A stretch of DNA of 24,806 bases, taken from contig ML992501.1 of assembly GCA_010093995.1 (NCBI GenBank), positions 1,642,566 through 1,667,371 of the forward strand, written 5' to 3'. Under the pieces are notes generated by a model. The model did not search any database, was not told where the DNA came from, and was given only the letters and a program-made list of their open reading frames with translations. The position numbers and the translations under genes are program-made. Below, piece after piece: positions 1 through 18,966 of the stretch. This stretch comes from Elsinoe ampelina. Its lineage: Eukaryota. Numbering within the stretch: the first letter of the stretch is position 1; every line of letters starts with the position of its first letter.

Positions 1-170
1 ATTCTTTGAGTAATTGCCGAGCAGGTGTGAAGTGTCTCGATTTGAAGATTGTGGGATGCGTTGGAAATCAGGTGAATGATGAGTGAAGGTAACACTATGT
101 ATGCATCGTAAAGTCATCGGCGTGATCGGCCCGTCCTCCGACCATCTTAGGTCACGTGCTTCTTTCGCAT

Positions 171-429
171 TGTCAACCTCGGCAAGAGCTGTGGTGCCAA
201 GAAGGACCCTGATTCAGTTCACCCAAGGTTGAACTGAGCACTCTTTAACAACTTTACCAGTTCATGATCAATTTGGATGGTTATTGTCTTAATCTGTTAC
301 TATTCAGGAGTTCTCTGATTTAGCTATGTCTCAGTTCATCAGGTTGAGTATATATGTAGTTACAATCCACCTAATTTAGGTGGATCAGGCAGTAATAAAT
401 CTCTTTCTCTCCCCACACACAAGTCAACA
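171..429 (+). repeat. 5' LTR (259 bp)
   Basis: TGTCAACC...AAGTCAACA; matches 5276-5534 except for 6 transitions; contains a TATATA box-like sequence and AATAAA (394-399). Confidence 0.97.
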
Positions 430-440
430 GTTATAAGCCC
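430..440 (+). promoter_or_regulatory. Primer-binding site, half-tRNAiMet type (RIP-altered)
   Basis: GTTATAAGCCC directly after the LTR; one TG>TA change from GTTATGAGCCC, the complement of the initiator tRNA-Met anticodon arm used by Ty5/copia-type elements. Confidence 0.75.
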
Positions 441-597
441 GGTATAACTACCCCTGTACAAGCATATCATTTAGTGGCTTCTCTACTCGATTCATTGGTT
501 TATTCTCTATCATCTCGCTTTTCAAGCACTAGAATCTGTTAAGTACTGCCTTATCTACTACTATAGGATTCAGGTGTTAACAAAGAGATAAACAACT

Positions 598-3500
598 ATA
601 GATACTAACACACTAACAGCTAGAACACCTATTATTCTTGCTACATTAGCTGAATGGGCTAGCTAGCTATATATTATCAAGACTAGAGCTTTAAACACCA
701 AGATCTAGCACATTGTTAATCCCTAGGAGACAGTTAAGCTAGAAGGGCTCCCTAAGCCTTAGAGGCTAGATGTATCAGATTCTAACTTCTTAGCACTCTT
801 CTAGATCTATAAGGAGGAGCAAGCTTAGCATAACAAATAGCACAAGGCCTTAGTAGATCTAGCTAGCCTTATTTAGTTATTAATTGCACTATAAGTTCTT
901 ATAGTTATCTAACTAGAGGGAGATCCCTATCTATAGGCTATCCTTAGAGCATTAAAGAACAGATTTACACTATCTAATGCTATAATCCAGCTTAAGGTTA
1001 AAGCTCTCTAGAGGAGACAACTCTCTAGTCTATTATTACAGAACATGGACTATTAGCTTTAGCAATAGGAAGAGGTTATAGACAAGGCTAGGAATTACAA
1101 CCTACTAGAAGCTTAAGGCTTAAGGCTATAGAGAGACTTCTTGCTCTCTATCTTAAGGACTGAACTAGCATTTGCTAACAAATATCTTATTAATCTAGAT
1201 TTACTAACCCTGCTAACTATGCTTAAGTTAATTACTAAGTTTAGACAGTTTCACAAACTTTATAAGCTATATAGTAGCATAAAGGCTAGCAAGGGAGCAA
1301 TAGCATTCCCTATAGCTACTAAGGACTCCTTATAAGAGAAGCCTAGTCCTACTAGGGAGCCTAGATATATATACTAGAAGCAGCATAAGTAGAGTAAGTG
1401 CTATTACTTAAATAAGTATCTAAGGCTAGAAGGATAGTTACTAAACTAATAGACCCTTAAGGAGGTTAAGTAAAGGCTTAATAATAAGGCCTTAAGAGAG
1501 AAGGTTAAAGCTATCCTTACTAAGGAAGCTTACCTTTATAAGGGGTTATCCCTATTAGTGCTAATTAACACAGCTATAACTATTAGATCACACTTAGTAT
1601 TTATCTTAGCTACTAGTAACATCTTAAGTTTATAGATTCTAGATTCTAGAGCAACTAATTACATCTGTAATTACACTATAAAGGACAGATATAAGGTCAC
1701 TAGACTTATAGAACCTTATAAGCAAATGTTCTATAGTAACACCTTACTTACTATTAAGAGTTAGGGATCGATCACTATTATAGCGATCTATAGGGGAAAG
1801 CTAGTGACTATCTAACTTACATAGGTAGCTTATGTGCTATTAATAATAACTAATCTAGTTAGCCTTAGGAGATTCCTAAAGGGTAGAGTCTACTAGAACA
1901 CTTAAACTATAGAGATTAATTACAAAGGGAGAGTACTCTTCTTAGTGACTCTAAAACACAATTAATATATAGTAGAGAATAACTCTAAAGCTCCTTATGC
2001 TATTACTATAGCTATAGGAGGCACTAGAGATCCTTATCTATTAGCATTTACCTTAGTCATAACAAGGACTAATTAATCCTAGTATAAAGTTATAGGCTAT
2101 CTAAGCATAGAGTCTATTAATTACCTCCTAACTGCTATAGTTAGTAGTAAACGGACTTTAACTAAGCCTAACTTAGTTTAGCTAATTTATCTTAGGTTAC
2201 TATGTTAGACTTGTAAGCTATTAAATACTTAGAAGCTTATCTTAAGGAGCTCTAACACTGAGATTGTTATAACTAAGCCCTTTAAAAGGATTACCTTTAA
2301 CATTATTGTTAATAGGTTTACTAGCTATAATAAGGTAAGGTATATAAGCTATTTTGCCTATAGGGCTACTAACTATTACCTTGTAAGCAGTCATGCTTAT
2401 AGATATAAGATTAATAAAATCTATATTAAGATAATTACTTACATTAAAAGTAATCTTAGCTTTAAGGTTAGATTCGTTAGGAGTAACAATAAAGGGGCCT
2501 TTAGCCTTAGATTTACTATCTTCCTAGATAGTAAAGGTATCTAAAGAGAGCTATCTACTCTATACACTCTAGCATAGAATAGTTATAGTAAAAGGATAGG
2601 GTCTATACTATTAAGGAGAGCAAGGGTAGTAGCTATCTTTGCTAATCTTCTAAGGGAACTACACCCTAAACTATATAGATTAGTAGCCTATCTAATAAAT
2701 AGGACTCCACTTAAGAAGCTTAACTAGAAGACTCCCTTTAAGCTAGTTTATAGATGTCCTCTATTAATCTCCTATCTTAGGCCAATTGGTTGCAAGGTCT
2801 ATACACTAGATTATTATGTCATAAGTAGTAATAAGCTTATACTAAGAGCACATATTAGCTATCTAGTTAGATATAACTTAACTAATATATTTAGGATCTT
2901 TATACTAGCTTTAAAGAAGGTCATTAGAACAAGGGATGTTAGATTTAATAAGACTTAGTTCTACAAGCTAGAGGAGCAGCCTTAGCCTTAGCCTATTAGA
3001 CTACTTAATCTACTAAGACTGCTATAGGAAGTTAAGGAGAATATACCTCAAACTAAAGGGGTAACTAAAGGCCCATCTACACTGTAGAATCTAGTTTAGT
3101 ATCTAGTTTAGTATCTAGTTTAGTATCCAGTTTAGAATCTAGTTTAGAATCTAGCTTAGAATCTAGTTTAGTAGATTCTAACTAAGGAACTAAATAATTA
3201 TAGTTTATTATCATAGTTATAGGCTTAATAGGCTCTATTACCTCCACTAGATAATTATAGTCTACTATTACAGTTACAGACCCTAGATCTAAGCCCGGCT
3301 TAGATCTAGGAGGCTATATCACTAGAGTAGTTCTATAATGCTCTAGCCTCTCTACCCTTGACAGCTATATAGCCTTTACCTCTATCTAAAGCTGAAACTA
3401 TAAGGAGTAAGGTAGAAGCCCTAGCTAAAGGGGTAACGGAGGAGCCTAAATAGCCTAGAAGAAAGATTGCTATAAGGTTAGCTAACCTATTACCTAAGCA

Positions 3501-5268
3501 TATCCTTACTATAAGAAGGACTAGGAAACTAAGAAGGCAGGCCTATATTGCTAGTCTTGTATAGCCTTAGGAGGCTCCTAGATATTATTAAGCTTTTAAT
3601 GCTTATCTATTAATAAAGCTAATCTAGCTAAAGCTAGAACTAAGGGATAATCTCCCTCTACTACTAGCTAACATTAGGGAGCTATAAGCCTATCCTTATA
3701 GAGAGCAATTCTAACAAGCAATAAAGGAAGAATTGCTTACTCTCTATTTAAAAGACACTTAGGCCATTATGCTTGCATCTTAAGCTATAGGGAAGCTAGT
3801 GCCACTAATATGGGTTTTCACTTATAAAGTTAATAAAAAAGAAAAGGTTATTAAGTACAAGGCAAGGCTTTATATAAGGGGTAATCTTTAATCTATAGAG
3901 TTAGAGACTTATATAGCTACTCTAGCTGCTAAGATCTTTAGAATGCTTATGGCCCTCCTTACTTACAAGGATATAGAGGCTATCTAGATAGATGTTGTTA
4001 ATGCTTATATTAATAGTCCTATTAATAAGATAACCTACTATACTATTCTACCTAGATTTAAGCTTATACTAGAGGTGCTTATAAAGGACTATCCTAGTAT
4101 AGTATTATCTAATGCAATTCTCCTGCTAAAGAAGGCACTCTATAGCCTTAAACAAGCACTAGCTCTCTAGTATATAGAATTCACTACTATACTAAAGAAT
4201 CTTAGATTCACTTAGGCCCCTAAGGCTCTATGCCTCTAGCTAACCCCTAAGGTAATAATCTTCTTCTTTATAGATAATATTACTATTATATACCTTAAGA
4301 AGCACAAAGGCAAGGCTAATGCTATTATTATAGCCCTATATGCTAAGTATAAGATAAAGATGCTTAGAGATCTAAGCTAGTTCCTAGCCATCTAGATTAT
4401 AAGGGATAGGCCAACTAAGAAGCTATAGCTTAGTCAAGCTTAGTATATCCAGCAGATATATAGTAAGTTCATTACAGAACTAATAAGGCTAGTCTTAATA
4501 CCTCTGCTAGTTAAAATGCTCTAGCCCTCTAAAGGCTAAGTATCACTATAGGAGATCTACCTATACTAGTAGAAGGTAGAATCTATCAACTTTGCAGCAG
4601 TTATTACTAGGCCTAATGTTGCCTTTGCTACTTCTAGATTGTTAGAGCATCTAATAAATCCTTTACTAACTTATTAAAGAATAGTAAATAGAGTTATCTA
4701 ATATCTCTTTAAAACTAAGGATCTAGCCCTTGCCTTTAATAGTTCTATACCACCACCAATCTTCTAGGCCTTATCTAATGCTAGCTTTAGCAGTCACTCT
4801 TTAAGGAAGAGTCTTTAAGGCTACCTATTTAAGATGTTTAGTAGATCTATTAACTAGAAGGCTATAAAGCAGCTAATAGTTACAACCTTAAGCACTGAAG
4901 CTGAGCTACTTGCTCTTGCAGAAACCACTAAGCAAGCTATGTGGTAGAGGAGGCTAATAGCCTCTATCTATCCCCTAAAGTATGTTAGTATTTAGTATAA
5001 TAACTAGCAAACTATTAGACTTGTTACTAGTCCAATTAAGAAGCTTAACACACGTCTTCGCTATGTTAATATCTATTATCACTGGCTAAGACAAGAGATC
5101 AATTTATCTAGCCCTATCTTAGTGACATAGACTCCCTTAGCAGACACCTTAGCTAATGGGCTGACAAAGTCACTGTCTCCTAGCAGGTATAAGGCCTTCT
5201 TACAGCAGCTATCCCTCGAGCTTATAGTCCACTAACTAGCAACTGACAGATTCAGAGCTATTCAGTGA
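598..5268 (+). pseudogene. gag-pol polyprotein relic (gag, protease, integrase, RT, RNase H) in a single frame with many RIP-generated stops
   Basis: All motifs read in one frame: *ILDSRA (WILDSGA, 1633), FVRSNN (RSDN, about 2473), FFFIDNI (YVDD-type, 4261), SNASF (SDASF, 4774), STEAELL (4891), KLNTRLRYVNIYYHWLRQE (5041), ANGLTKSL (about 5152), ending at TGA 5266-5268. Start inferred from ATA (ex-ATG) at 598. Confidence 0.9.
3085..3171 (+). repeat. Tandem repeat, 7 x 12 bp (TAG[A/T]ATCTAGTT), in the integrase-RT linker
   Basis: Units read directly; one unit keeps CCA, suggesting an ancestral Q-(N/H/Y)-P-V peptide repeat in the pol frame. Confidence 0.9.
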
Positions 5269-5275
5269 AGGGGTG
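5267..5275 (+). promoter_or_regulatory. Polypurine tract of left retrotransposon
   Basis: GAAGGGGTG immediately before the 3' LTR start TGTCA. Confidence 0.75.
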
Positions 5276-5534
5276 TGTCAACCTCGGCAAGAGCTGTGGT
5301 GCCAAGAAGGACCCTGATTTAGTTCACCCAAGGTTGAACTGAGCACTCTTTAACAACTTCACCAGTTCATGATCAATTTGGATGGTTATTGTCTCAATCT
5401 GTTACTATTCAGGAGTTCTCTGATTCAGCTATGTCTCAGTTCATCAGGTTGAGTATATATGTAGTTACAATCCACCTAATTTGGGTGGATCAGGCAGTAA
5501 TAAATCTCTTTCCCTCCCCACACACAAGTCAACA
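5276..5534 (+). repeat. 3' LTR (259 bp)
   Basis: Direct repeat of 171-429, followed by the TSD CGCAT. Confidence 0.97.
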
Positions 5535-5732
5535 CGCATTGGAACACTCGTAGGTGACCCTTTCAAGGCATTTGCATATACAATCAGAGTGAGGCATGTA
5601 AGAGATGCATCCATCATTTATACAGTGGATTCAGGCATCAATCACCTGACGAGACTGCCGACTACGAGAGACCCCATTTCCATGCTCCAGGTCCTTTCCA
5701 GCTAACCACCAAGGAACCAATATCAGGACACG

Positions 5733-6167
5733 TCACTCAGAGGGTTGATTATGTGAGTGAAGTATCTGCTGTGTTTGCTTCGAAGCCGTATTGGCTCGTA
5801 GCCTCCTCTTATGCGACCAACGTTTAGCGGTATTCTTGGTGAAGACCACAGCAGCTATAGTAAGCCGTTCTATATGCACCAATTTTGTCCCTGCCACGAA
5901 GCTCAGGTAATGATCGAGGATGACTTTCGAGGTATAGATGTCGCAGGGTACTGCAGTGTTTGGTAAGACCCCAGCTACGCGGCCAGTCTCGAAATTGTCC
6001 TGGCAGTGCCGAAGTATCGAAATGATGTTGGGTGCTCCTCTAGACCCGAACCATGCCACCGCAGCAAAAACTCCAGTAGCCAGGTCCGCCTTCGTGGTTG
6101 GGAAGCTGACAGGAGCGGTCAGAAGTATGAACACCACAAGGAGGCCGAGCAGAGGGAGGAGTTTCAT
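5733..6167 (-). CDS. Possible small secreted or membrane protein (144 aa), unverified
   Basis: ATG-initiated ORF with signal-peptide-like start MKLLPLLGLLVVFILLTA in otherwise unexplained space; no recognisable family. Confidence 0.3.
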   Translation of the reverse strand: MKLLPLLGLLVVFILLTAPVSFPTTKADLATGVFAAVAWFGSRGAPNIISILRHCQDNFETGRVAGVLPNTAVPCDIYTSKVILDHYLSFVAGTKLVHIERLTIAAVVFTKNTAKRWSHKRRLRANTASKQTQQILHSHNQPSE

Positions 6168-6661
6168 CGGAGTTGGTTCGTGACGGAAGATTTATGCCAT
6201 GCGTCGAATATGACAGCTGTTAAGAAACAAAATATCATAATTGGTGAGAGTTTGGAACTCAGGAGAAGATAACTTTGCTGGTTGTGGTTCAGGACTTCGT
6301 GCTTGGTCTTTCTTGGAATCTCCATATGCTTTGCTACCTGAAACTTACCACAGTGAGAGCTTACCGTATAAACTGGACACATTCATATCATGCTTTGATC
6401 CGCATAAACGTCATGTATTATGCGAGGTACCGATTTGCGTTTCGAGGATTACTGGCATGTTCTGATGGAAAGGACGATTACTGGTCGGGAATTGTGATCA
6501 CTTACCTTGCTTGCTGACTAAGCTTCTGTGGCGATTCAACAACCACATCCTTCCCGTCAATCTGGAGACTTATAAATGTGACAAAACGGCACTCTTTGTT
6601 GACGGAAGGGTGATCTGATCGATTCGAGATATCCTACATGGGTCCTCCATAGCCGCTAATC

Positions 6662-7704
6662 ATGGATGGGGACGGACCGGCCAAGGAAGTGGTGTTTCGA
6701 CCTTCGAAAAGGCGCAAGGTCCTTCGTCAACGATCTGTGGACGAGGAGGTCGGGGCTAGCGATGTCGTTACGGTGGACCAACAACCTGGATATGACGTCG
6801 GCGGACCATATATAGCTTCGCCTGCTAGAGCGATACCATCGATCTCAAGGCGATCAAGGGGCAATCAGAAGTTTGGGGTGACCTTCAGCACGGCGAACAA
6901 AGCTGAGGGAAGCGCGGATGTATCTTCTCAGCAGCTCGCCACGGCCAATGTTGTGCCTCAGACAGCTGCGATGAATGCTGGAAGATTTATGCCGGCAATC
7001 GGAGAAGTGACAGTCAAGGACGACAAACACATGTAAGTCGTCCCATGCTGCTGTCTGTTTCATTCCACCCACGATCGTCGTCACTTGTGTCACTCGCACT
7101 ATTCTAGGAAAAAACATTACTAATCGTCAGGACCGCATATATAGACTCCAAGCTGGCTGAGATGCATTCTACAAGATCGAGATCAGTTCCACCTGTGGAA
7201 TCCATGTCGAACAGAATTCCCAATGCAGCATCTCCAAACGGCAGTGTGCCCAATCAGCCAGAAGGTATCAAGTCACGCCATCATACAGTCGAGGAAGTCG
7301 AGATAATTCCGGGCGAACCAGAAACTGCATCAGTTCCCTCCAAAGACCGCAAGCGCAAAGAGCCAAGACCTCGCCTAGATCGCCACGGAAGACCCCTTCC
7401 GCCTCGTCGGCCTCGCAATTGGCGGTCCGAAGACGACAAGGCTCGGGACTCGCTTGTGGACAGACTCTTAGCTGAGAACCGGCTCGAAGGCATCTACGAC
7501 AGCTCATCCGCCAATGCGGCGCTGGGGGCGAAAGGCGTGGACACCGATGCGGACAGGAGAATGGCAGAGGAATTCGAGCGGGAGTTCCGAGCGAACGTGG
7601 AGGAGCGGAAGATCAAGCAGGCTTCTGCATCGGCGAAGACAGCAGAGTCTGCCAGTGGACCGAAATTAGGAGGGAGCAAGAATGCGCGGATGGTGAAGAA
7701 GTGA
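6662..7704 (+). CDS. Hypothetical fungal protein, basic and likely nuclear; exons 6662-7032, 7131-7704
   Basis: Intron GTAAGT(7033)...TACTAAT...CAG(7130) joins the two ORFs in frame (DDKHM-TAYIDSKLAEM); NLS-like FRPSKRRK and KDRKRKE; C-terminal GPKLGGS. Confidence 0.8.
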
Positions 7705-7822
7705 GTATCCCAGCTAGGGACTGGCATACGAAAGCTAGCATATCTATGCCCCCATGAGCTATGCCCCAATGTATATCATGAAATTACCAGAAACACCGTG
7801 AGACTACCATCGACCCCCGATC

Positions 7823-10800
7823 CTAATTCTCCACCTCAAACTTCATCTTCACCCCCATAGCTGCCAACTCCACATCCAAAAACCTTAACACCCCCGGCAC
7901 CGCCACAACCGTAACATCCCTTCCCCCGACCCACTTCTGTCCATGCCCATCCTGCCATGTCTCATTCCTCACCTCCCCTCCCTTGGCCTTCTTACTACAC
8001 CTCCTACACCTCACCATATCCGGTCCTTGCACCCCCCTACCCCTGCGCTGATACTCGCTCACCACCGGCTGACTCGCCAAAAATCCACCACAGCTCCTGC
8101 ACAGCCAGGCTTTGGTGTAGTCGCTGCAGTTCAGCAGACGATCCTGCAGGAGGAACGCCGCTCCGTGGGCCATGAGTGCATCACGCTCCATTTCGCCAAC
8201 ACGTATACCGCCTCCCTTGGCACGACCCTTGATGGGTTGGCCCGTGAGTTGCGTCACGGGACCGGTGGTGCGGACTTGGAATTTGTCGTTGACCATGTGG
8301 CGGAGACGTTGGTAGTAGACCACGCCGACGTAGATGTCGGCGCCGAGCTCTTGGCCTGTGATGCCGCTGTACATGGGCTCGTTGCCGTGGTAGTTGAAGC
8401 CCGCGCGTTTGAGTTGGTGGCCGAAAAAGTCAGCGGCGGTTTTGCCTGGCTCGTCTTTGAAGCGGAATGGGGTCGAGTCCTGGGCGAAACCGTGGAGGCA
8501 GCCTGCTTTGCCTGCGAGAGATTCGATGAACATGCCAATGGTCATGCGAGACGGGAAGGCGTGCGGGTTGATGATGACGTCGGGTTGGATGCCGGATTCG
8601 GAGAAGGGCATGTCGATGCTTGGCCATTTTTGCGAGCAGACACCCTTTTGACCGTGGCGGGAGGAGAATTTGTCGCCGATGACCGGGGAGCGAGGGATGC
8701 GAAGACGGACGCTGAGGGTTTGGCAGGGAACGGATTCCCCTGTTTCATTGCCGATGAGCTTGATCTCGTCGATGAAGGCTTCTTCGGGATCTTTGTAGCG
8801 GTGAAAGTGAGTGATACCATCACGATTGATGTATTCACCGGTGATTGGGTCTTTGGCCACCGTGTGTGAAGCAGCGATGATATCGCCTTCCTTGACCTTG
8901 GACCCAATCATGATCAATCCGTCATCATCAAGTCTTTCTCTTGTGTTGGCTTTGACCAGTCCGCCAGGCGCAAAACCAAATAGACGGCCCACTTTTGTAC
9001 TTGACCTGCTTTTTCTGCCACCAGTATCTTCGGTCAAGTCGAGCTTCTTGGTCTTGTAGACTGTACCATGACCGAAACCTCGTTCGTGTGCAGATTTGTT
9101 GATGATCATGGCGTCGTCCATGTCGTATCCTGTGTATGAGATGACAGCGACAACAGCGTTCGTGCCATTCGGGAAATTATCGAGTCCATACTCGTTGTAG
9201 AGTGGTGGTCGCACCACGGGTGTTTGTCCAGTCTGTAGCCGGTACGTCTTGTTGTCGGTCCTGTACTTGAGAGCCGTGCCTGGCGTTCCCATCGTCTGCT
9301 TCCCCATTTGACACTGGCAGTGGATTAGCGAGACATGTAGAATTGTATTAGGGAGAAATTTACCTGATAGGCATTTCGTGGCGACTGGTTGAAATCCGAG
9401 AATGGGGTTTGATTGGCGACAATGGAAAGGATATTGGTGGGATCGTACTCTACATGAGTCGAATCGTTTGAAGTAAGTTCGGCATCTGTGCAAGCAATGG
9501 TGAGATAGGGCTGCTCGAAAGGTCCTACCATATCTTGCTTATCAAGAGGCACATATCTAACAGGACGATACATTCTTGCAGGTCCAGAAAACATGTATAT
9601 GCCGGGGTATTGCCCACCATGCGAATTGGGGATATAACCAATCTCCAGATCGAGAGGCACGCCATGAGATCCTTCCACTTTCCAGTAACGGAGTGTGTCT
9701 GCGATTGTTCGAGCTTGCTTGGGTGAGCAAAATCCCAGGATCTTCCCGTCGAGCTGTACCACAACGCTGCTCTGTAACTTCGCGAGCGACAGATCTTGTA
9801 CGCCTAGGTCGGTGATCAATTTGGGAATCCGAGACACGTTCGTGTTGGTCGTTGCAATGTGACACCTGTGTGCGAGATGGTTGAGGAGTCCACAAGGAGA
9901 ACCGTCAGGGGTGTGCACCGGACACAGATATCCCCAGCTCTCTGGCAGAAGCTTTCGAACGGTAGTGGTTTTCAGTTGCGCGAAGAAGCTACCTCTGTGT
10001 ACCATACGGAAGTGACTAATGAAGCGATAGAAGTTGATTTTCTCTGCAACCACGGTGAATCCCGATACTTGCTGCAGATCCAGACCCGTGGGACTGACAA
10101 GGTTGCCGGTCGAGAGAAAGTATTCGAGCGCCTGTGCCAGATTTTCATTGGTCTTTCGTAAGATCTGCGAATTGAAGTCCTTTTCGAATTGTTCCGAAGT
10201 GATTGGCATCCAACTGTTCTTCCTACCCCATTCTCGAAGAGCCAGACCGAATGACAACAACCACTCATCAATTCTTTCTTTGATGATCATGCCATACAGA
10301 TGACCCGGTAGTAGAATCTCTTGATTTTGAACAGCATCCGGATTGTCCACCGCACACTCCCCTTCCACCAAGGAGTATAGCTTCCTGGTCATGAATAGCA
10401 ACATCCGGAACTTGTCGATGTCACTGCTCTCGGTTGAGTCCAGTGCTCCGAGATGTGGTAAGACAATTTTCCTGATGAAAGCGACGCCGGCTTCCTCGTC
10501 TGACAGATCATCGGATACGCCGAGTACCAGCCGGAACTTGCTCCCAAGATACGCTCTCGTCTTCGCCTTGCCATGGATGTCGTACGCTCGGTATGTTCGT
10601 AATAGAAGCTCCACCCTGTCAGTGACGAACTGCTTCTCCGCAATTCCCTCACTCCCTGCTGGACCAACAATGCCCTCATAAATCTCCCTGTCGTTCGTTT
10701 CTGCCAGTGCCTTTATGATCATCAAGACTGGGACTAAGAACTCGTTCTTCCGCCATGAAAATCGGAACGTGACATTACCATCGCTGAGATAGTGTAGCAC

Positions 10801-11526
10801 ATCCGTCTGTGATGTCTGGTCTGCTCTGACACTCCTAATCTGGATACCGAACTTGGTGTAGGTTGCTCCACGATTGACGAATGAAGGACGAATAATGGCC
10901 ATAGGATAGTTCCTCCGATTAACGATCAACATTCGTATCAGCTTCTCGATACCATTGACGATAAAGTATCCTCCAAGCTCTTCTGTTTCTTCCCTTTTGT
11001 TGACAAGCTGGTCTGGCGAGAGTCCTTCAAGGTGACATCTGTTCGACCTCAGCATGATTGGAAGCTGTCCAAACTCTCTGAGCGACTCTTTCCAAGGTCC
11101 TCCATTGATGCGGTATAAGAATCTGCCAGTCAATCTTCCTCTGTACGTGACATGGCGCTCTCTACATTCAACAGGTAGGATCTCCCGCACACCTGGTTGC
11201 TTGTTGCTTGCCGGCACAACACTTCGCGCCAGGAAAACCTGGTCCACCTTGACCTCGAGTTTGTTCTTGAGCGGGGCATCTTCATCTCCCTGCGAAGATT
11301 GCTGAGGATTGCCATCGAAGAAAGTTTTCGTCCCGATATCTTTCAGGGCCTGTTCGATCTGCCCGCCCTCTGCGAAAATGCCATTGAATGAGTCAACATG
11401 TGGTTTGATAGCTTGAGCTAGCGAGGGATATGCGGTCTTGTCTTTCGGTGGCTCTTGGAAGAGCTTCTGCCGTTTGACAGTCCCAAACTCGGTCGTCCAT
11501 GTTGAAGAGTCTGCTGATGGTGCCAT
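7823..11526 (-). CDS. RPA2: DNA-directed RNA polymerase I second-largest subunit; exons 11526-9364, 9313-7823
   Basis: Motifs GGYFIVNGIEK, LCPVHTPDGSPCGLLNHL, NQSPRNAYQ|CQMGKQTMG, GYDMDDAM, GDKFSSRHGQKG, YQRLRHMVNDKFQVR, GEMERD and a C-terminal Zn site. 50-bp intron 9363-9314 (GTAAAT...GCTAAT...CAG). First in-frame ATG is 11526 (MAPSADSSTW). Confidence 0.97.
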
Positions 11527-12075
11527 GCTGGCGTGCTTGGGTTTTGTTGTCGATTTACCTGACAAGCATGGCTATATTACCAGGTCCAGAGCCAGGATGC
11601 TAATGGTCGGTAGTCCTGGGCAGTGGTAGTTCGGTATGTCGTACTTCACATTGAAAGATTTCTGGTCGTCCAAGCTCAAAAAATGCATTGCAGCATGGTT
11701 TTAAGGTTATCGATAAGAAATGCGGGAGACAACTCTAAAAAGCGCCGATCGATGCCGAAGTGAAACAATTGTGGCTTCTCCACCCGCATTTCGGGCTGCT
11801 CTGCATTCCCATTCGTGATCCATCCTATTTCTGCCCTTTGACACTTGCGCCGCATCTTGACTCGACGATCCACAGCTCAAACCGACTGTCCGCCTGCTCA
11901 GGAAATTGCGACTCCATGATCGCCATCAACTTGAGAAAATAGTACATTCAAAGGCGCTGCCTGTGACTTGTGTGAGAGCCGCGACAGTAGACTTTCTGGT
12001 CGAGCAGGTTGATCCGTTTGCCTTCGACGAGTGAAATAGGCGGCTTACAGGTGGATCTGGATACAGCAGAGCAAT

Positions 12076-12998
12076 ATGGCTGGTCTTTTGAGGAAGTTGT
12101 ATGACTGGCTATTAAGCTTGTTCTGGTAGGCATTCTTCCGCGGGCGACGAGGCAGGATCTGCTTCCGAGATCTCATCTTGCCGACATGTGGCACGGATGC
12201 CACGTAGCCATACCGTGAACACAAGGCTGATCGGATCCAGGTCTTCGGAGATGGATGTGACGATCGTCGGGTTATCGAGTGCTGGCAAAACGTCACTCGT
12301 CCGTGTGCTTGCGGTCAGTAGCGTATGGGAAACCATGGAATTAATGACTGACTTTGTTGCAGGGAGGCGAATTCACCATCAAGTATGAATGACTTACAAC
12401 AGCATTCTTTGCCAGCGCTGATCATGACCAGCTCGATACCGACAGTCGGTTTCAACATGAAGAAAGTGACCCGTGGACACGTCACTCTCAGATGGTATCG
12501 CATTGCCCGAGAACAATTTCGTTGACTGGATCACTGATTGCTTCCAGCTGGGACATCGGCGGCCAGGACCGGTTCATTCCGATGTGGAAACGATACGCTC
12601 CAGGATCCAGCGCCATCGTGTAAGTCTCTCAAGAAACGATAGGCAACGCGAATGCTAACAGCAGCAGCTTCGTGGTCGACTCAGCCAACCAAGGCGATAT
12701 GGAGCCCGGAGTACGAGATGAAGACAAGTCAGATCCGCCAGATGTAGACAGTGGTATCAAGAAGGCAAAGCGGGCCTTGCACGACCTGGTAAATGCTCCC
12801 CGAGTCGAACAAATTCCTCTTTTGGTCCTCGGCAACAAATCGGATCTGGACAACCATCGATCAGTGGATACACTGATAGAAATGCTAGACCTCCAGTCTA
12901 TCACTGGCAGAGAAGTCAGTTGTTATGGTATTAGCGCCAAGGAGGAGACCAACCTGGATGCTGTTCTCAAATGGCTGATCAACAAGGCCAGTAAATAG
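12076..12998 (+). CDS. ARL8: Arf-like small GTPase, Arl8 family; exons 12076-12125, 12241-12313, 12363-12382, 12432-12494, 12548-12619, 12668-12998
   Basis: Spliced product MAGLLRKLYDWLLSLFWSSEMDVTIVGLSSAGKTS...[27 protein letters not shown]...LVLGNKSDL...REVSCYGISAKEETNLDAVLKWL. G1-G5 boxes present, amphipathic N-terminus without Gly2; five GT-AG introns preserve the frame. Confidence 0.92.
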
Positions 12999-13695
12999 GT
13001 CAGCTGGGATGACATCCAGGGACAAATGGTGGACGACGGCTTACAGCTTTCGAGCTCACCGAGAAGAGGTGGGACACCCGCTCGAAGTGCTGTTCAACCG
13101 AGTATTGCTTGTTGCTTCCGATGGAGTAGAACAGACGGAACGCAGTTCGAGCTGCTGACCAGCAATGGTCACACCGTGATTGTTGAGTCACGACTTATGC
13201 ATCAGTAACGATATGATATCCCATTATAATGAAACACGGATCCGCACTGCCGACCGATCGTTCTTAGTTGCTATGCGATCGTGCTGTTCTGCGATCGTAT
13301 TTGGGCAAGCGAAGTGCTGGTATGTTCACAATGTCTCGACAAATGGCGGTGATGATAAAGACAGTGGTCCAGTCAGAAGGGAAATTCTGTATTGAAGCGA
13401 AGAAGCGATTGTAAAAGTCGATGTCAGGGATTTGCATGTCTGCCACGCTGGCATGCATGGAACCTACCTCAAAGTAGATAGGCCCCAAACAAAACACGAC
13501 ATGTAGACCGAGATCTGCAATCTAGGTTCGCGTGATTCGATTTTGCATCACTGCAGACTGCGGTGGCACTATTTGAGACGTCGTATCGACAATGGAATAT
13601 CCAACAAGCACAGGTAAGGTATACAAGCATGTGACAGCACATTGGTCGTGTTCGGTGCCACAAGAAAAAAAATAGGCAAGACTATGGTTCATTCG

Positions 13696-14030
13696 GGGGA
13701 ATGCTATTTACCCCCCCGTTTTTGCTAGATACCCCCCCCCAGGGCGCTAGTGCGCGGGAGGCTGAACTTATTTTACGTGCCCCTACTCACGGTATATACT
13801 TAACACCTGCCTAGCGGCGAGCGACCTAGCTAAAGATCTGTCCGGCTCGCACGAGCGTAGCGAGTAAGAGTATATATCCTTTTTATAAGGATTTAGTCCT
13901 TATAGAATAGTAGATTCTACGTAGATTGTTAAGTAGTTCGATTAAGGTTTAGAGCTACGGGCTACTCCCGCGTGGTAGCGCCTTGGAGGGGGGTATCTAG
14001 CAAAAAACGGGGGGGTAAATAGCATTTCCC
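13696..14030. mobile_element. Non-autonomous DNA transposon (MITE), Mutator-like, 335 bp
   Basis: Imperfect terminal inverted repeats of about 65 bp (GGGGAATGCTATTTACCCCCCCG... / ...CGGGGGGGTAAATAGCATTTCCC); exact 9-bp flanking duplication GTTCATTCG (13687-13695, 14031-14039); no transposase; TpA-rich interior. Confidence 0.92.
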
Positions 14031-14705
14031 GTTCATTCGACGCTCTGGCAGCCAATCAGAGGTGGTCAGGTCTAAATTCCCGGCACGGATCCAATCATCG
14101 ACAGGGACATTTCCCCAGCCGCAAATGCCTAATCCGGACACACCATGCTCGCTGCTTACAACTTTACCTAGGTAGCCTTTCCAAATTACTGAGGCAAGGC
14201 ATAAAGTGGTGCAGAAAATCAGCATCATTTAGGCAGAGGACTGTAGTCATCATTTGCCGCATGCCGACTTGTTTCCGTCCGGTCTGAACTCAGTCATCTC
14301 AAATCAAGACAAATAGACGATCAAGCCACTCGGCGACGTAATTGCCAAGCGGCAGTGCAGCCCGCCGCCAGTTTCTCAGAGGTCATCCACCAAGCACAGC
14401 CCGCCCGCCGTGTCTCTGCCGCATGCCGTCAGCCCTCGTCACCACTTTTCCCATATAATCAAGGACCCCCGCCGTCAGACCTTCTCCACCACCTACCAAA
14501 CTCCACCAAACCACCGTCTGAGATACCGGCGCAATCATGTATCTCGTCGACAGAGACCTCATCGCGCGACAAAGCAGGACGTAAGTGCTCATCTCACCCT
14601 CATTTCACCTGTCTCAACCGTTGCGCCGCAACGCTGCGTTCGCATCACCTCACATTCCTCCATCATCCTCACCTCTCCCTCTTCAACATCCACAAACAAG
14701 TCCAA

Positions 14706-15167
14706 ATGACTTATTATACCTACAGCTGTGGCTACGACCGCTACGGTCGCTACCGCTGCTACTCCGCCTGGGACAGCTGGGTACGCTGGCTCGTCTTCGG
14801 GCTGATCGTCGGCGGCGCACTGCTCCTCTTCCTGCTCTTCTCCTGCATCTCCGCCCGCCGCCGCCGCAAGGCCGGCTACCGACCATTCTGGGGCACGAAC
14901 TGGGCCGCAGGAAACACGCCCATGGGCCACGGTCGACCGCAATACAATGGCCAGCAGCCCAGCCAGTACAACATGAACAACAACGCGCAACCGTACTATG
15001 CGAACAACGATCCTACTCAGCAACCGTACCACAGCAACAATCCGCCTCCATATAACCCGAATGGCCAGAACGCGAGTTACTACAGAGGCGAGACGGGCGT
15101 GAGTGAGCCTGCCGCGACGTATCAGGGACAGTACAAGCCTCCTGAGGGACCTCCTCCTGGAAGATAG
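14706..15167 (+). CDS. RCR-family (chitin synthesis regulation / Congo red resistance) single-pass membrane protein, 153 aa
   Basis: Short Tyr/Cys-rich N-terminus, W..W.RW followed by a hydrophobic TM segment, basic stop-transfer ARRRRK.G..P..GT.W, and a Q/N/P-rich tail with PPPY and terminal PPEGPPP. Confidence 0.8.
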   Translation: MTYYTYSCGYDRYGRYRCYSAWDSWVRWLVFGLIVGGALLLFLLFSCISARRRRKAGYRPFWGTNWAAGNTPMGHGRPQYNGQQPSQYNMNNNAQPYYANNDPTQQPYHSNNPPPYNPNGQNASYYRGETGVSEPAATYQGQYKPPEGPPPGR

Positions 15168-15650
15168 ATGGGACCAGAGAGAACACGAGTAAGCCGGAAG
15201 AGTAAAGGCTTGACGAACGCATGGCACGAACCGAACGGCGTGGAGCTATTTCCTTGGATTCGAAAGAGGGGCTGGGCAAAAGATCATGATGGGATACCCA
15301 AAGGCCTTTGTCGTGCTTGAGGAGCATGTACGATATTGTTACGAAGAATTTATTTTGCCTAATTCTCCTCCTGACTTTGTCTCGCTGTGATGATGTGTCG
15401 TAGTGTGCATTTGACTCAATCCGTCGTGATACACTATAGCGCGTGGCAGTGTAGTTGCTGTCGACCACAATCACAGCTATAGTGAATCGTACAACTAATG
15501 AGTTCACGAAAATTCATCACGTGCCATGAGCAACGTAGCATAAGGACAGACAGTAAAAGAGTGACATATTTTATTCAGCGAACGACCAGGCTACCTCCCA
15601 TCATCTCGATCATTTCCCTGCGTCTTGAGCAGACCATTCGGTAGCTCAGT

Positions 15651-16687
<1,037 letters not shown>

Positions 16688-16698
16688 CTACGTGGGGT

Positions 16699-16903
16699 CT
16701 GCTTTCTCGTTAGGATGCCACATTGAAGTGGGACATTGCGATAGCATGAATCCTTCCGCTGGTATTATCCAGAGATCAAGTTCAGGCCGTATAATCTCAG
16801 AACAACGTGTGGAGGGTCAGTCTGAAGGGTGACTTTAGCACCTCTCTCCAGATCATGGTCTGCCCCACGTCGAACACCGGCTCATGCTTCTATAGGTAGT
16901 TAC
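16699..16903 (-). promoter_or_regulatory. Riboswitch-containing 5' UTR intron of THI4 (proximal 5' splice site to 3' splice site)
   Basis: GAG|GTAACT donor at 16903, branch point CTAAC at 16713-16709, CAG acceptor ending at 16699, 20 nt before the ATG. Candidate distal donors: GTACGG (16996) and GTATCG (17080). Confidence 0.75.
16743..16888 (-). ncRNA. TPP riboswitch aptamer in the THI4 5' UTR intron
   Basis: Minus strand reads AGCAUGA-GCCG-GUG...[long P3]...CUGAGAUUAUA-CGGC-CUGAACUUGAUCUCUGGAUAAUACCAGCGGAAGGAU-UCAUGCU: P1, P2, the CUGAGA motif, P5 and the GAUAAUA loop are all visible. Confidence 0.97.
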
Positions 16904-17969
16904 CTCGATCATGTTTGGATGTACCATCCTGAAAGGACTTCTCCCGCCGCAATGGGAGTCATGCTGGTCGACGTAGGTGGAGGGCGATCACCGTACCGAG
17001 GTGGGTGTTTGACGTCTGCCACGTGCATTAGTTTATGGTTCTCTACTCTAGGTGAAACGCCAGGTCGAAACCCTCGATACTTTACGGGAGTTTGGTATTT
17101 TGGGAATATCCGATTCTCGTTTGTGAGGGTCGAAAAGCGTTTGTGGGAAGAAGGACAAGCGAAGGGGACGAGAGGAAAACCCCCTCACTAGAGCTGTGGT
17201 GGGGGTTGAGGAGAGACCCACTTTTCCTGCGCTTCGGACATGATGAGCGGAAAGAGCCAATCATGGTTTGTTCTTCCAAAATCATGTCAAGCTCACGACA
17301 CTTTCCATCGTCAAGCGCTGTCACAGCATGGGTGCAAATCAAGCAATCTGAAGTCGACCAACGATTGACCAAGTGCCTGAACCCAGCAAGGATGTCGATT
17401 GACTCGGTTTAGCCGAGCAAAGGATCGTCGCTGGGTCTTGGGACTTCAGCTCTCCATTCCCCGGTCTGTCATACACCTTCGGGGAATCAACATGCATGCA
17501 TCGAGGCACCTCAGCACGCGATTGTGATCGCAGTCGACCACGAAAATCTTCTGATGTCAACTGCTCCACGTCTGTACGAGAAATGGCGCCCTGGAACAAG
17601 GAAAATTGGCCTCTTCCGGGTTGGTATTGCCTGCACTATCCCTCTTTGGTGTGGCTTTCGGACGATCCACCACCTTGTCCGAAGGTCTGATAGACGGATG
17701 CCCACTCCAACACGACCCTCACACGCCTAGTCGCCTGCACGAGCCGAGAGAACGGTCATGTAATAGGTTTGTGTGCGCGCGAGTCGAACTTTCCTTCGTT
17801 TCCCTGAATCTTCTATCGCATATACATCCTTCGTCATGCTCACATATCCTTCCCAACATCCCAGTCGTCTTACTTGCAGTCAATTCGGATATCGTGCCTG
17901 CCGGTGATTCAGTCTTTTCAACTTCTTTCGACACACTCTGCAATCATGATCATCTGCCCAGCCCCCATT

Positions 17970-18966
17970 ATGCCTCGCAACTCGCCAATGTTCCTGGAAG
18001 TGCCAAAAGCGCTCCCACACAGGCGAGCGAGGTCGCGCTCACGTCCTCGGGAACCAGAATCTCCAGGCCGGCGAACTCGTTCAAGGTCCCGCGGCTCGCC
18101 AACACGAGTGGCACCAACGCCTACCAATCTCAAAAGCACATCACCAACAAGAGGTCACCGTCGTTTGTTGAGTAGTGGCGGCGGACGGAGGTCGATCGGT
18201 TCACCACCACCTCTCCGGACTTCATCGCCAAAGACATTGCCATTGAGGAAGAAGACTCCGCCACCGCATCTGCTTCTACACAAAGCTGACCCGGAACCTG
18301 TCCATCCGAGGGAGATATTCAATGACTTGAACGGCGACTTCTACACGTTGCCGCCATCTCCGAGCCCTCCGCCGACACCAAAACTGCCTTTGCGAGAAAG
18401 ACTGATAGGTGCATGGAAGCTGGAATCATATATCGCCTATCCCACAGCATCATCACCGTTACAGCGAGCGAAATACCCAATGACAAAGAACGTTACTGGG
18501 CTGATTATGTACACGCCTGATGGATACATGAGTGCACAAATGCTGATACCCGGCCAACAACAATTCAACAAAGGACCTGGTGATGATTCCCAATGGGCCG
18601 AAGCGGGTAAACGGTGCTTCGCTTATTGTGGACCGTACTTCATCAGCAACGATGGTCCCGGTAACGAAGAAGTCCTTCGGCACAGCTTCCAATTTTGCAG
18701 TCTACCGGGATGGATCGGAGATATCCAGATCAGGACGTGGCGATTCGAAGAGGATGGAGACGTCCTCGTCCTCGGCAGTCAAGAACCGACAGAGGTCAAG
18801 GTACGATGACCTTGCCATTGCTCGCCGATATTGGCAACATACTAACACTGATTAGGGTGACTTTAGGATCCCCGTACTCAAATGGCGAAAATGCAGAGAC
18901 AACTCCGGCGGCACACCACCACCCCCAGTACCGCAGATCAAGGTCAGCGGACCTGGAGAACCATAA
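17970..18966 (+). CDS. Lipocalin-like domain protein with Arg/Ser/Pro-rich N-terminal extension; exons 17970-18800, 18856-18966
   Basis: LIGAWKLESY...GLIMYTPDGYMSAQM...AYCGPY...PGWIGDIQIR...LKWRK pattern typical of the lipocalin-like (Lipocalin_5) family; intron GTACGA...ACTAAC...TAG. An alternative in-frame ATG exists at 17946. Confidence 0.82.

Follow-up and report, generated by a model that had tools for sequence, protein, structure and literature searches.

What does the short piece of RNA between the two 5′ splice sites of a fungal thiazole synthase leader do, and how much of the riboswitch aptamer that follows it can it pair with? The question is raised by the Thi4 locus of Elsinoe ampelina, which lies in a 24,806-nt stretch of DNA (NCBI GenBank assembly GCA_010093995.1, contig ML992501.1, positions 1,642,566 to 1,667,371) that is called, as a whole, the window here. 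Coordinates are in window numbering and the mRNA corresponds to the minus strand throughout; a slash marks the boundary in donors and splice joints, and square brackets in motifs enclose alternative bases. Our analysis indicates that the leader probably contains the expression platform of a fungal THI4 thiamine pyrophosphate (TPP) riboswitch that chooses between two 5′ splice sites, with the 62 nt from 16965 to 16904 serving as an anti-aptamer for the whole 3′ half of the aptamer. This reading builds on the complementarity of the two segments, the use of both donors together with one acceptor, the layout of the upstream open reading frames (uORFs) and the conservation and co-variation of the pairing in relatives, all of which are observed. 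The elements on which the argument turns are the following.

15651..16678, minus strand: coding sequence (CDS) of Thi4 (thiazole synthase), ATG at 16678, delimited by a Pfam match, open reading frames (ORFs) and a contig joint
16699-16700, minus strand: shared acceptor AG; both riboswitch-intron joints end at 16698
16709-16713, minus strand: branch-site-like CUAAC, recognized in the sequence
16743..16888, minus strand: TPP aptamer, with P1 16888-16882 / 16749-16743, P2 GCCG/CGGC and P4-P5 16780-16750
16902-16903, minus strand: GU of the proximal donor D2, GAG/GUAACU; the joint 16904/16698 skips 205 nt, GT..AG
16991..16997, minus strand: distal donor D1, CUCG/GUACGG; exon end 16997, intron start 16996

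The ORF starting at 16678 matches the Pfam family Thi4 (PF01946, E 1.8e-67) and therefore codes for thiazole synthase, and the aptamer (16888-16743) sits inside an intron of the Thi4 5′ untranslated region (5′UTR; intron 16903/16996..16699). Logan contigs from four runs, presumed to be RNA, were aligned to 15500-17700 and revealed two donors (16997/16996 and 16904/16903) that share one acceptor at 16699. The proximal joint 16904/16698 was found in X2 and X15 contigs, the two runs coming from different studies; since this joint corresponds to the donor GAG/GU, the anti-aptamer helix ends at the last exon base, and the preliminary description of the locus was right that the segment is transcribed and that the helix ends at a proximal 5′ splice site in use. 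Joining of the distal donor to the same acceptor (16997/16698) was also observed, less firmly than the proximal joint: two X1 contigs end at 16997 and continue with a 10-letter loose end equal to plus-strand 16689-16698, the first exon bases past the acceptor. With the transcript start assumed near 17128, the distal isoform carries no upstream AUG (uAUG), whereas three lie in the 93 nt that the proximal isoform retains. The uAUG at 16962 opens a 17-codon uORF, present in the proximal isoform only, and those at 16927 and 16912 are in one frame, which reads through the main ATG in a different register and has its stop at 16635. The layout is thus of the NMT1 type, as had been proposed, with uAUGs lying between two donors that share an acceptor. 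A further proposal, that the pairing sequesters the three uAUGs, cannot matter for translation, judging by the isoform layout, because the uAUG-bearing isoform has the pairing partner spliced out and the other isoform lacks uAUGs.

The runs also differ in contig depth. X1 had very high depth on the Thi4 exons, together with the distal joint and low depth over 16758-16979 relative to the exons; X2 and X15 had low depth, the proximal joint and an unspliced contig, and no depth dip over 16758-16979. The pattern is suggestive of on and off states and may reflect thiamine-poor versus thiamine-replete growth, with the reservation that transcript levels cannot be read from the depth of contigs.

In the cmscan alignment of the aptamer with the Rfam model RF00059, all helices and conserved cores are present (the CUGAGA junction, ACNUGA and the GGAUAAUACCAGCG pyrophosphate arm), folding of 16890-16741 yields P1, a long P3 and P4-P5, and the same cores recur in 57 of the 80 THI4 loci described below. 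Judged by its sequence, the element has the P1-P5 architecture of a TPP aptamer and is predicted to bind TPP. The P3 helix is long, with a 65-nt insert relative to RF00059, a model reported in passages of PMC11683625 to miss fungal aptamers with a long P3. A scan of the trimmed stretch aligned RF00059 to 16886-16741 (31.0 bits, E 9.3e-05), which falls short of the gathering score of 54.3, and the Rfam scan of the window gave no RF00059 match at that score, nor was it reached in any of eight relatives (L078, L002, L006, L075, L009, L077, L054 and L069); scans at the Rfam threshold will therefore miss this aptamer class. A wider scan returned 29.1 bits (E 0.0018) and placed P1 at 16857. It took a CAUGA within P3 (16853-16857, minus strand) for the P1 5′ strand, hence the lower score and an aptamer start that is off by 30 nt. 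The true 5′ end, AGCAUGA-GCCGGUGUUCG at 16888, is given by the relatives, whose aptamers keep GCAUGA[GA]CCGGUGUUCG. The CAUGA within P3 is the third of its kind, and it is conceivable that it, too, competes for the P1 3′ strand.

Upstream of the aptamer, 16965-16904 (minus strand) pairs colinearly with the aptamer 3′ half over 32 bp, three of them G-U, at -35.0 kcal/mol (RNAduplex). This reproduces exactly the five-block colinear pairing, G-U pairs included, that had been put forward in the preliminary description. The blocks, as paired by RNAduplex, and a local hairpin found in the cofold structures are, from 5′ to 3′ on the mRNA:

16965-16959, minus strand: AGCAUGA, pairs with UCAUGCU at 16749-16743 (P1 3′ strand); contains uAUG1 (16962-16960)
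16958-16941, minus strand: local hairpin CUCCC-auugcggc-GGGAG, between the P1-3′ and P4-3′ complements
16938-16931, minus strand: GUCCUUUC, pairs with GGAAGGAU at 16757-16750 (P4 3′ strand and junction to P1)
16926-16922, minus strand: UGGUA, pairs with UACCA at 16764-16760 (P5)
16920-16916, minus strand: AUCCA, pairs with UGGAU at 16771-16767 (P5)
16910-16904, minus strand: GAUCGAG, the last 7 exon bases before D2, pairs with CUUGAUC at 16780-16774 (P4 5′ side)

The first block is indeed a duplicate P1 5′ strand, as had been noted: the upstream AGCAUGA (16965-16959) is an identical second copy of the AGCAUGA with which the aptamer begins (16888-16882). The region UGGUA-c-AUCCA (16916..16926) can on its own form the hairpin GGAUG-GUA-CAUCC, which also appears in the aptamer-enforced fold. 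The hairpin insert at 16958-16941 lengthens the duplex span of the upstream segment to 61 nt, versus a median of 43 nt in the relatives. At the same place as this hairpin, the relative L070 has a comparable CCCAG-aug-CUGGG element.

Taken alone, the window makes a moderate case for pairing beyond chance. The energy of -35.0 kcal/mol was reached by 16 of 2000 mononucleotide shuffles, and the 120-nt upstream region gave a z of -3.6 (p 0.005) against 200 dinucleotide shuffles. The complementarity is more than chance because of its position at the donor and its conservation in relatives. Thi4 exon 1 was used to scan metagenomes, and 80 loci at 50-84% identity were obtained, 57 of them with the aptamer 3′ part upstream of Thi4 (nhmmer). 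Thirteen loci were dropped for want of the P2 motif, leaving 44 loci and the window, and the removal of two further loci with less than 120 nt upstream and of three exact duplicates left 40 non-identical loci including the window; six of the 13 were recovered later, for a total of 46, the other seven being too short upstream. At each locus, the 120 nt upstream of P1 were tested against that locus's own aptamer 3′ half. All 40 loci had z < 0 (mean z -2.88), with p ≤ 0.05 in 32 of them, and five of the six recovered loci had p ≤ 0.01, so that among the combined non-identical THI4 loci z was negative in 45 of 46 and p ≤ 0.05 in 37. Natural control segments from the same loci did equally well in only 8 of 152 cases, and in each of the 13 clusters, built by average linkage at 60% identity of the upstream segments (single linkage or loose thresholds chained all of them together), the upstream segment formed a more stable duplex than the controls.

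In the relatives the duplexes are colinear: they cover P4-5′, the two strands of P5 and P4-3′ and reach the P1 3′ strand. A GU[AG] lies no more than 3 nt from the duplex end in 18 of the 40 loci and no more than 15 nt from it in 38, GUA[ACU] occurs in 38 of 40 within the 60 nt that precede the duplex, and (G)AUCAAG/GUA is widely conserved at the proximal donor. By contrast with this conserved fit, the upstream sequence is not conserved: between lineages, the upstream segments are at background identity (median 54%; best for the window 62%). No conserved uORF peptide therefore explains the complementarity.

Covariation in related THI4 leaders, named as a check in the preliminary description, was borne out, the complementarity being both conserved and co-varying, P4-3′ and P1-3′ included. 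In 32 of 40 loci the upstream segment bound the locus's own aptamer half more stably than it bound the 22 other variants on average, and in the lineages most divergent in P5 or P1 (the L010 clade, L052/L047 and L011) the own half ranked first among all 23. When the aptamer halves were permuted over 13 cluster representatives, the observed value of -359.5 compared with -328.6 ± 9.2 for the permutations (p 0.0003), and 20 alternative sets of representatives gave a median p of 0.0009 and a maximum of 0.013. In the L010 clade (AAUCGUGC), in which P4-3′ and P1-3′ are altered, the upstream segment carries the matching change.

How far the pairing reaches was addressed part by part. The head (P4-5′ plus P5) is the strongest single part when tested alone (mean z -1.5, p ≤ 0.05 in 19 of 40 loci), and the tail (P4-3′ plus P1-3′) alone reached a mean z of -1.2 and p ≤ 0.05 in 10 loci. 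In a conditional test, the 3′ part of the upstream segment was held fixed and the sequence 5′ of it shuffled. Given the head, the tail had a mean z of -2.28, with p ≤ 0.05 in 21 of 40 loci, z < 0 in 12 of 13 clusters and z below -1.64 in 7 of 13; for the window, z was -2.8 (p 0.01). P1 given the rest had a mean z of -1.29 and was significant in 10 of 40 loci, with z < 0 in all 13 clusters and a strong effect in three. For the window, whose 20-nt hairpin insert the duplex model penalises, a cofold model gave an interaction gain of -13.9 kcal/mol. Of 300 shuffles of the 5′ part, 9 did as well; of 300 permutations of the AGCAUGA 7-mer (mean -8.0), none did, this block adding about 6 kcal/mol. The window is also among the five loci that are significant for P1-3′ alone (z -3.3). 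Some relatives have a P1-3′ complement without an AUG (GCGUGAU in L009, and likewise L052 and L059/L060), and the block is therefore not merely a start codon. From these sequence comparisons, the extension into P4-3′ appears to be a well supported conserved feature, whereas capture of P1 is supported in the window and a few clades and is, in general, only suggestive.

Several results weigh against a whole-half anti-aptamer that works as a switch. Of 6090 unrelated 64-nt segments taken from the 24.8-kb stretch, 38 reach -35.0 kcal/mol or better, so the duplex energy at the locus is in the top 0.6% and not unique. Nine of the 46 loci are not significant, and L028 (z 0.01) is the sole aptamer locus with sufficient upstream sequence that lacks excess complementarity; this locus, whose P5 and P1 also differ, may use another arrangement. 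The clusters were built on short segments at 60% identity, and their independence is therefore approximate. Alone, the 8-nt P1-3′ target had a mean z of -0.43 and p ≤ 0.05 in 5 of 40 loci, the P4-3′ target alone was likewise significant in 5 of 40, and P1 given the rest reached p 0.105 for the window under the duplex model. Paired bases per block are barely above those of shuffles (P1-3′ in 34 of 40 loci versus 62% of shuffles), counts that discriminate poorly because shuffled upstream regions pair 44-67% of the blocks (RNAduplex). The distal joint, for its part, is known from the 10-letter loose end and not from a full joint. Unconstrained folding of 326-421 nt gave no clear two-state picture: in the ensemble of the 326-nt pre-mRNA, anti-aptamer pairs have probabilities of 0.03-0.14 and aptamer pairs of 0-0.03, the minimum free energy (MFE) structure is a hybrid fold, and the 421-nt fold is no more stable than shuffles (z 0.39). 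Folding with and without aptamer constraints had been named as a check in the preliminary description, and the energies of the two states of the 326-nt RNA stand on the other side: the anti-aptamer state (-89.3 kcal/mol) lies 6.8 kcal/mol below the aptamer state (-82.5 kcal/mol) and 1.4 kcal/mol above the MFE (-90.7 kcal/mol). In this model, thermodynamics would allow a ligand-driven switch and are no proof of one.

Could the complementarity have arisen by chance and be without function? A short aptamer half with U/G-rich stretches pairs readily, as the unrelated segments at -35.0 kcal/mol and the pairing of shuffled upstream regions illustrate. Chance would nonetheless have to account for the negative z in 45 of 46 loci, the 37 significant ones, the 8 of 152 controls that do as well, the cognate permutation (p 0.0003) and a helix that terminates exactly at a used donor, and we regard it as very unlikely, close to negligible. 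Another explanation takes up the suggestion of the preliminary description that the segment derives from an inverted duplication of the aptamer half, now decayed and retained as a historical remnant, with no selection for a switch. Block by block, the segment does resemble the reverse complement of 16780-16743; the linkers between the blocks, however, are non-complementary and of different length (4 vs 2, 1 vs 2 and 5 vs 2 nt), and no relative of the upstream segment was found above 62%, compared with the median of 54%. The upstream segments of different lineages stand at background identity, yet each fits its own aptamer, which argues for selection on pairing and not for shared sequence descent. 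A duplication kept by history is accordingly improbable, with a slim chance of being right, and no trace of a duplication is left.

A more serious alternative holds that only the donor-proximal part functions, as in NMT1. The complements of P4-3′ and P1-3′ would then be incidental, arising from the near-palindromic P4-P5 hairpin, from the CAUG context of a uAUG, or through drift. The strength of the head on its own, the five loci each for the isolated P1-3′ and P4-3′ targets and the conditional p of 0.105 for P1 in the window would all be expected from it; the upstream CAUG is the uORF start in most loci, and the passages on these riboswitches in PMC3597705 and PMC5997356 name P4-P5 or 'a small region' only. 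It fits less well that, with the head fixed, the real 5′ part outdoes its shuffles in 12 of 13 clusters, or that the whole-length z exceeds the z of either part. The upstream change of the L010 clade, which matches the altered P4-3′ and P1-3′ and whose own aptamer half is the best of 23, and the P1-3′ complements that lack an AUG argue in the same direction. We therefore consider it unlikely that function ends with the donor-proximal part, and prefer an anti-aptamer that covers the whole 3′ half. The interpretation given in the preliminary description is in this sense partly supported, being largely right for the pairing with P4, P5 and P4-3′ and plausible for P1: that the helix reaches P1 agrees with the cofold permutations of the 7-mer, and is more weakly reflected in the P1 target alone and in the conditional duplex test of the window. 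Extended to the THI4 genes of filamentous ascomycetes at large, the idea becomes tentative, with a chance somewhat short of even: nearly the whole piece between the donors may be a co-evolving anti-aptamer for the entire aptamer 3′ half, merging both fungal mechanisms, with the P1 5′ copy doubling as the start of a uORF.

Under the preferred reading, TPP dependence, a structural switch, an effect of looping and a translational outcome would combine as follows. Without TPP, the five blocks would pair with P4-5′, both P5 strands, P4-3′ and the P1 3′ strand, burying the exon side of D2 in the helix and preventing P1, P4 and P5 from forming. The resulting loop would bring D1 (31 nt upstream of the helix) and the branch site (33 nt downstream) close together. 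D1 would be joined to the acceptor at 16699, and the leader, free of uAUGs, would permit Thi4 to be made. With TPP, the bound aptamer would retain its own P1 5′ strand (16888-16882) and P4/P5, the freed segment would form small local hairpins, and D2 would be accessible and used. The mRNA would then retain the 93 nt with three uAUGs, two of them in a frame that overlaps the main AUG, and Thi4 would not be translated.

The remaining features of the locus stand outside this argument.

15651..16678, minus strand: exon structure of Thi4, with exon 1 to 16038, a 47-nt intron at 16037-15991 and exon 2 to the stop at 15651
17016..17080, minus strand: upstream intron of the 5′UTR, 65 nt, GU at 17080 and AG at 17017-17016, joint 17081/17015
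17946-18809, plus strand: divergently oriented 287-aa ORF, first half Pro/Arg/Ser-rich

The joint of the coding intron (16038/15990, GT..AG on the minus strand) was present in all four runs, and that of the 65-nt leader intron (17081/17015) in contigs of X1 and X2. The leader intron is separate from the riboswitch intron and outside the switch; it was retained in one X1 contig (16793-17106). One further candidate structure in the relatives, a short hairpin closing the proximal donor 5′ of P1, was rejected as not significant (mean z -0.55, 2 of 40 loci). By eye, such donor-closing hairpins (for example, CAAG/GUA...CUUG or UUCAG/GUAACUAUCUGAA) were seen in the last 42 nt before P1 in L005, L006, L003, L075, L002, L009, L078, L058, L044, L054 and L056.

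Few eukaryotic riboswitch expression platforms have been dissected. The NMT1 and THI4 (CyPBP37) riboswitches of N. crassa represent Type I fungal control of alternative 5′ splice sites (PMC3597705, PMC5882874, PMC5997356), in which P4-P5 is described as blocking the 5′ splice site (PMC3597705). The riboswitch in the window belongs to the known THI4 class. As in Type I, its aptamer occupies a 5′UTR intron upstream of a thiamine-biosynthesis gene, two donors share a single acceptor, uORFs lie between the donors and are kept only when the proximal donor is used (0 vs 3 uAUGs), and P4-P5 bases are complementary to the region of the proximal donor (GAUCGAG/GU with CUUGAUC, and UGGUA/AUCCA with P5). 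Whereas the passages on Type I (PMC3597705, PMC5882874, PMC5997356) speak of P4-P5 or 'a small region' as the partner of the second donor, the complementarity in the window and in most THI4 relatives extends through P4-3′ into the P1 3′ strand. The mechanism of the THI4 riboswitch is said in PMC11900860 not to have been fully studied. Our literature searches brought up no account of a whole-half anti-aptamer for THI4, and Cheah 2007, Moldovan 2018 or the supplement of PMC5882874 may already show it. If true, such an anti-aptamer would explain the constraint on the sequence between the two donors, unify two published fungal mechanisms (masking by P4-P5 and an α-α′-like capture of the P1 3′ strand), open five separate helices to compensatory-mutation tests and provide a better search signature for fungal TPP riboswitches that the Rfam model misses at its curated score.

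The second of these fungal mechanisms is that of NCU01977 (Type II), the one case for which the papers describe pairing of the P1 3′ shoulder with a distal element, situated a short way past the distal donor, in the absence of TPP (Li & Breaker 2013, PMC3597705). The α-α′ pairing is proposed to loop out the proximal donor or donors and to draw the distal donor towards the 3′ splice site (PMC3597705). The window resembles it in that AGCAUGA, 31 nt after D1, can form 7 bp with the P1 3′ shoulder UCAUGCU, 33 nt before the branch site; in the relatives, this P1 3′ shoulder element has a consistent sign and is weak. NCU01977, as far as its published outline goes, is a transporter gene with a long intron in the CDS (650-900 nt, PMC5882874), a separation of ~530 nt and a GC-rich α, whereas the window has a 298-nt 5′UTR intron of Thi4, a separation of ~210 nt and an AU-rich 7-mer, and its P1 helix is continuous with the P4/P5 anti-aptamer. 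The window riboswitch is thus not a Type II member, and its likeness to NCU01977 is confined to one mechanistic step. Bacterial TPP riboswitches commonly use P1 nucleotides for alternative structures (PMC3597705), and here too the alternative helix would take one P1 strand from the aptamer. The output differs, being the choice of a splice site and not termination or ribosome binding, and because the competitor lies upstream of the aptamer it is transcribed first, unlike in the bacterial platforms. In the plant THIC riboswitch, P4-P5 likewise pairs with bases flanking a 5′ splice site in the absence of TPP, but that riboswitch lies in the 3′UTR and has a single donor, and the outcome concerns 3′-end processing and mRNA stability (both from passages of PMC3597705). 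Since the class and its logic, in which thiamine represses through an alternative donor and uORFs, were already known, the whole-half anti-aptamer is no new principle; it appears to be a refinement of a known mechanism that is general to fungal THI4 riboswitches.

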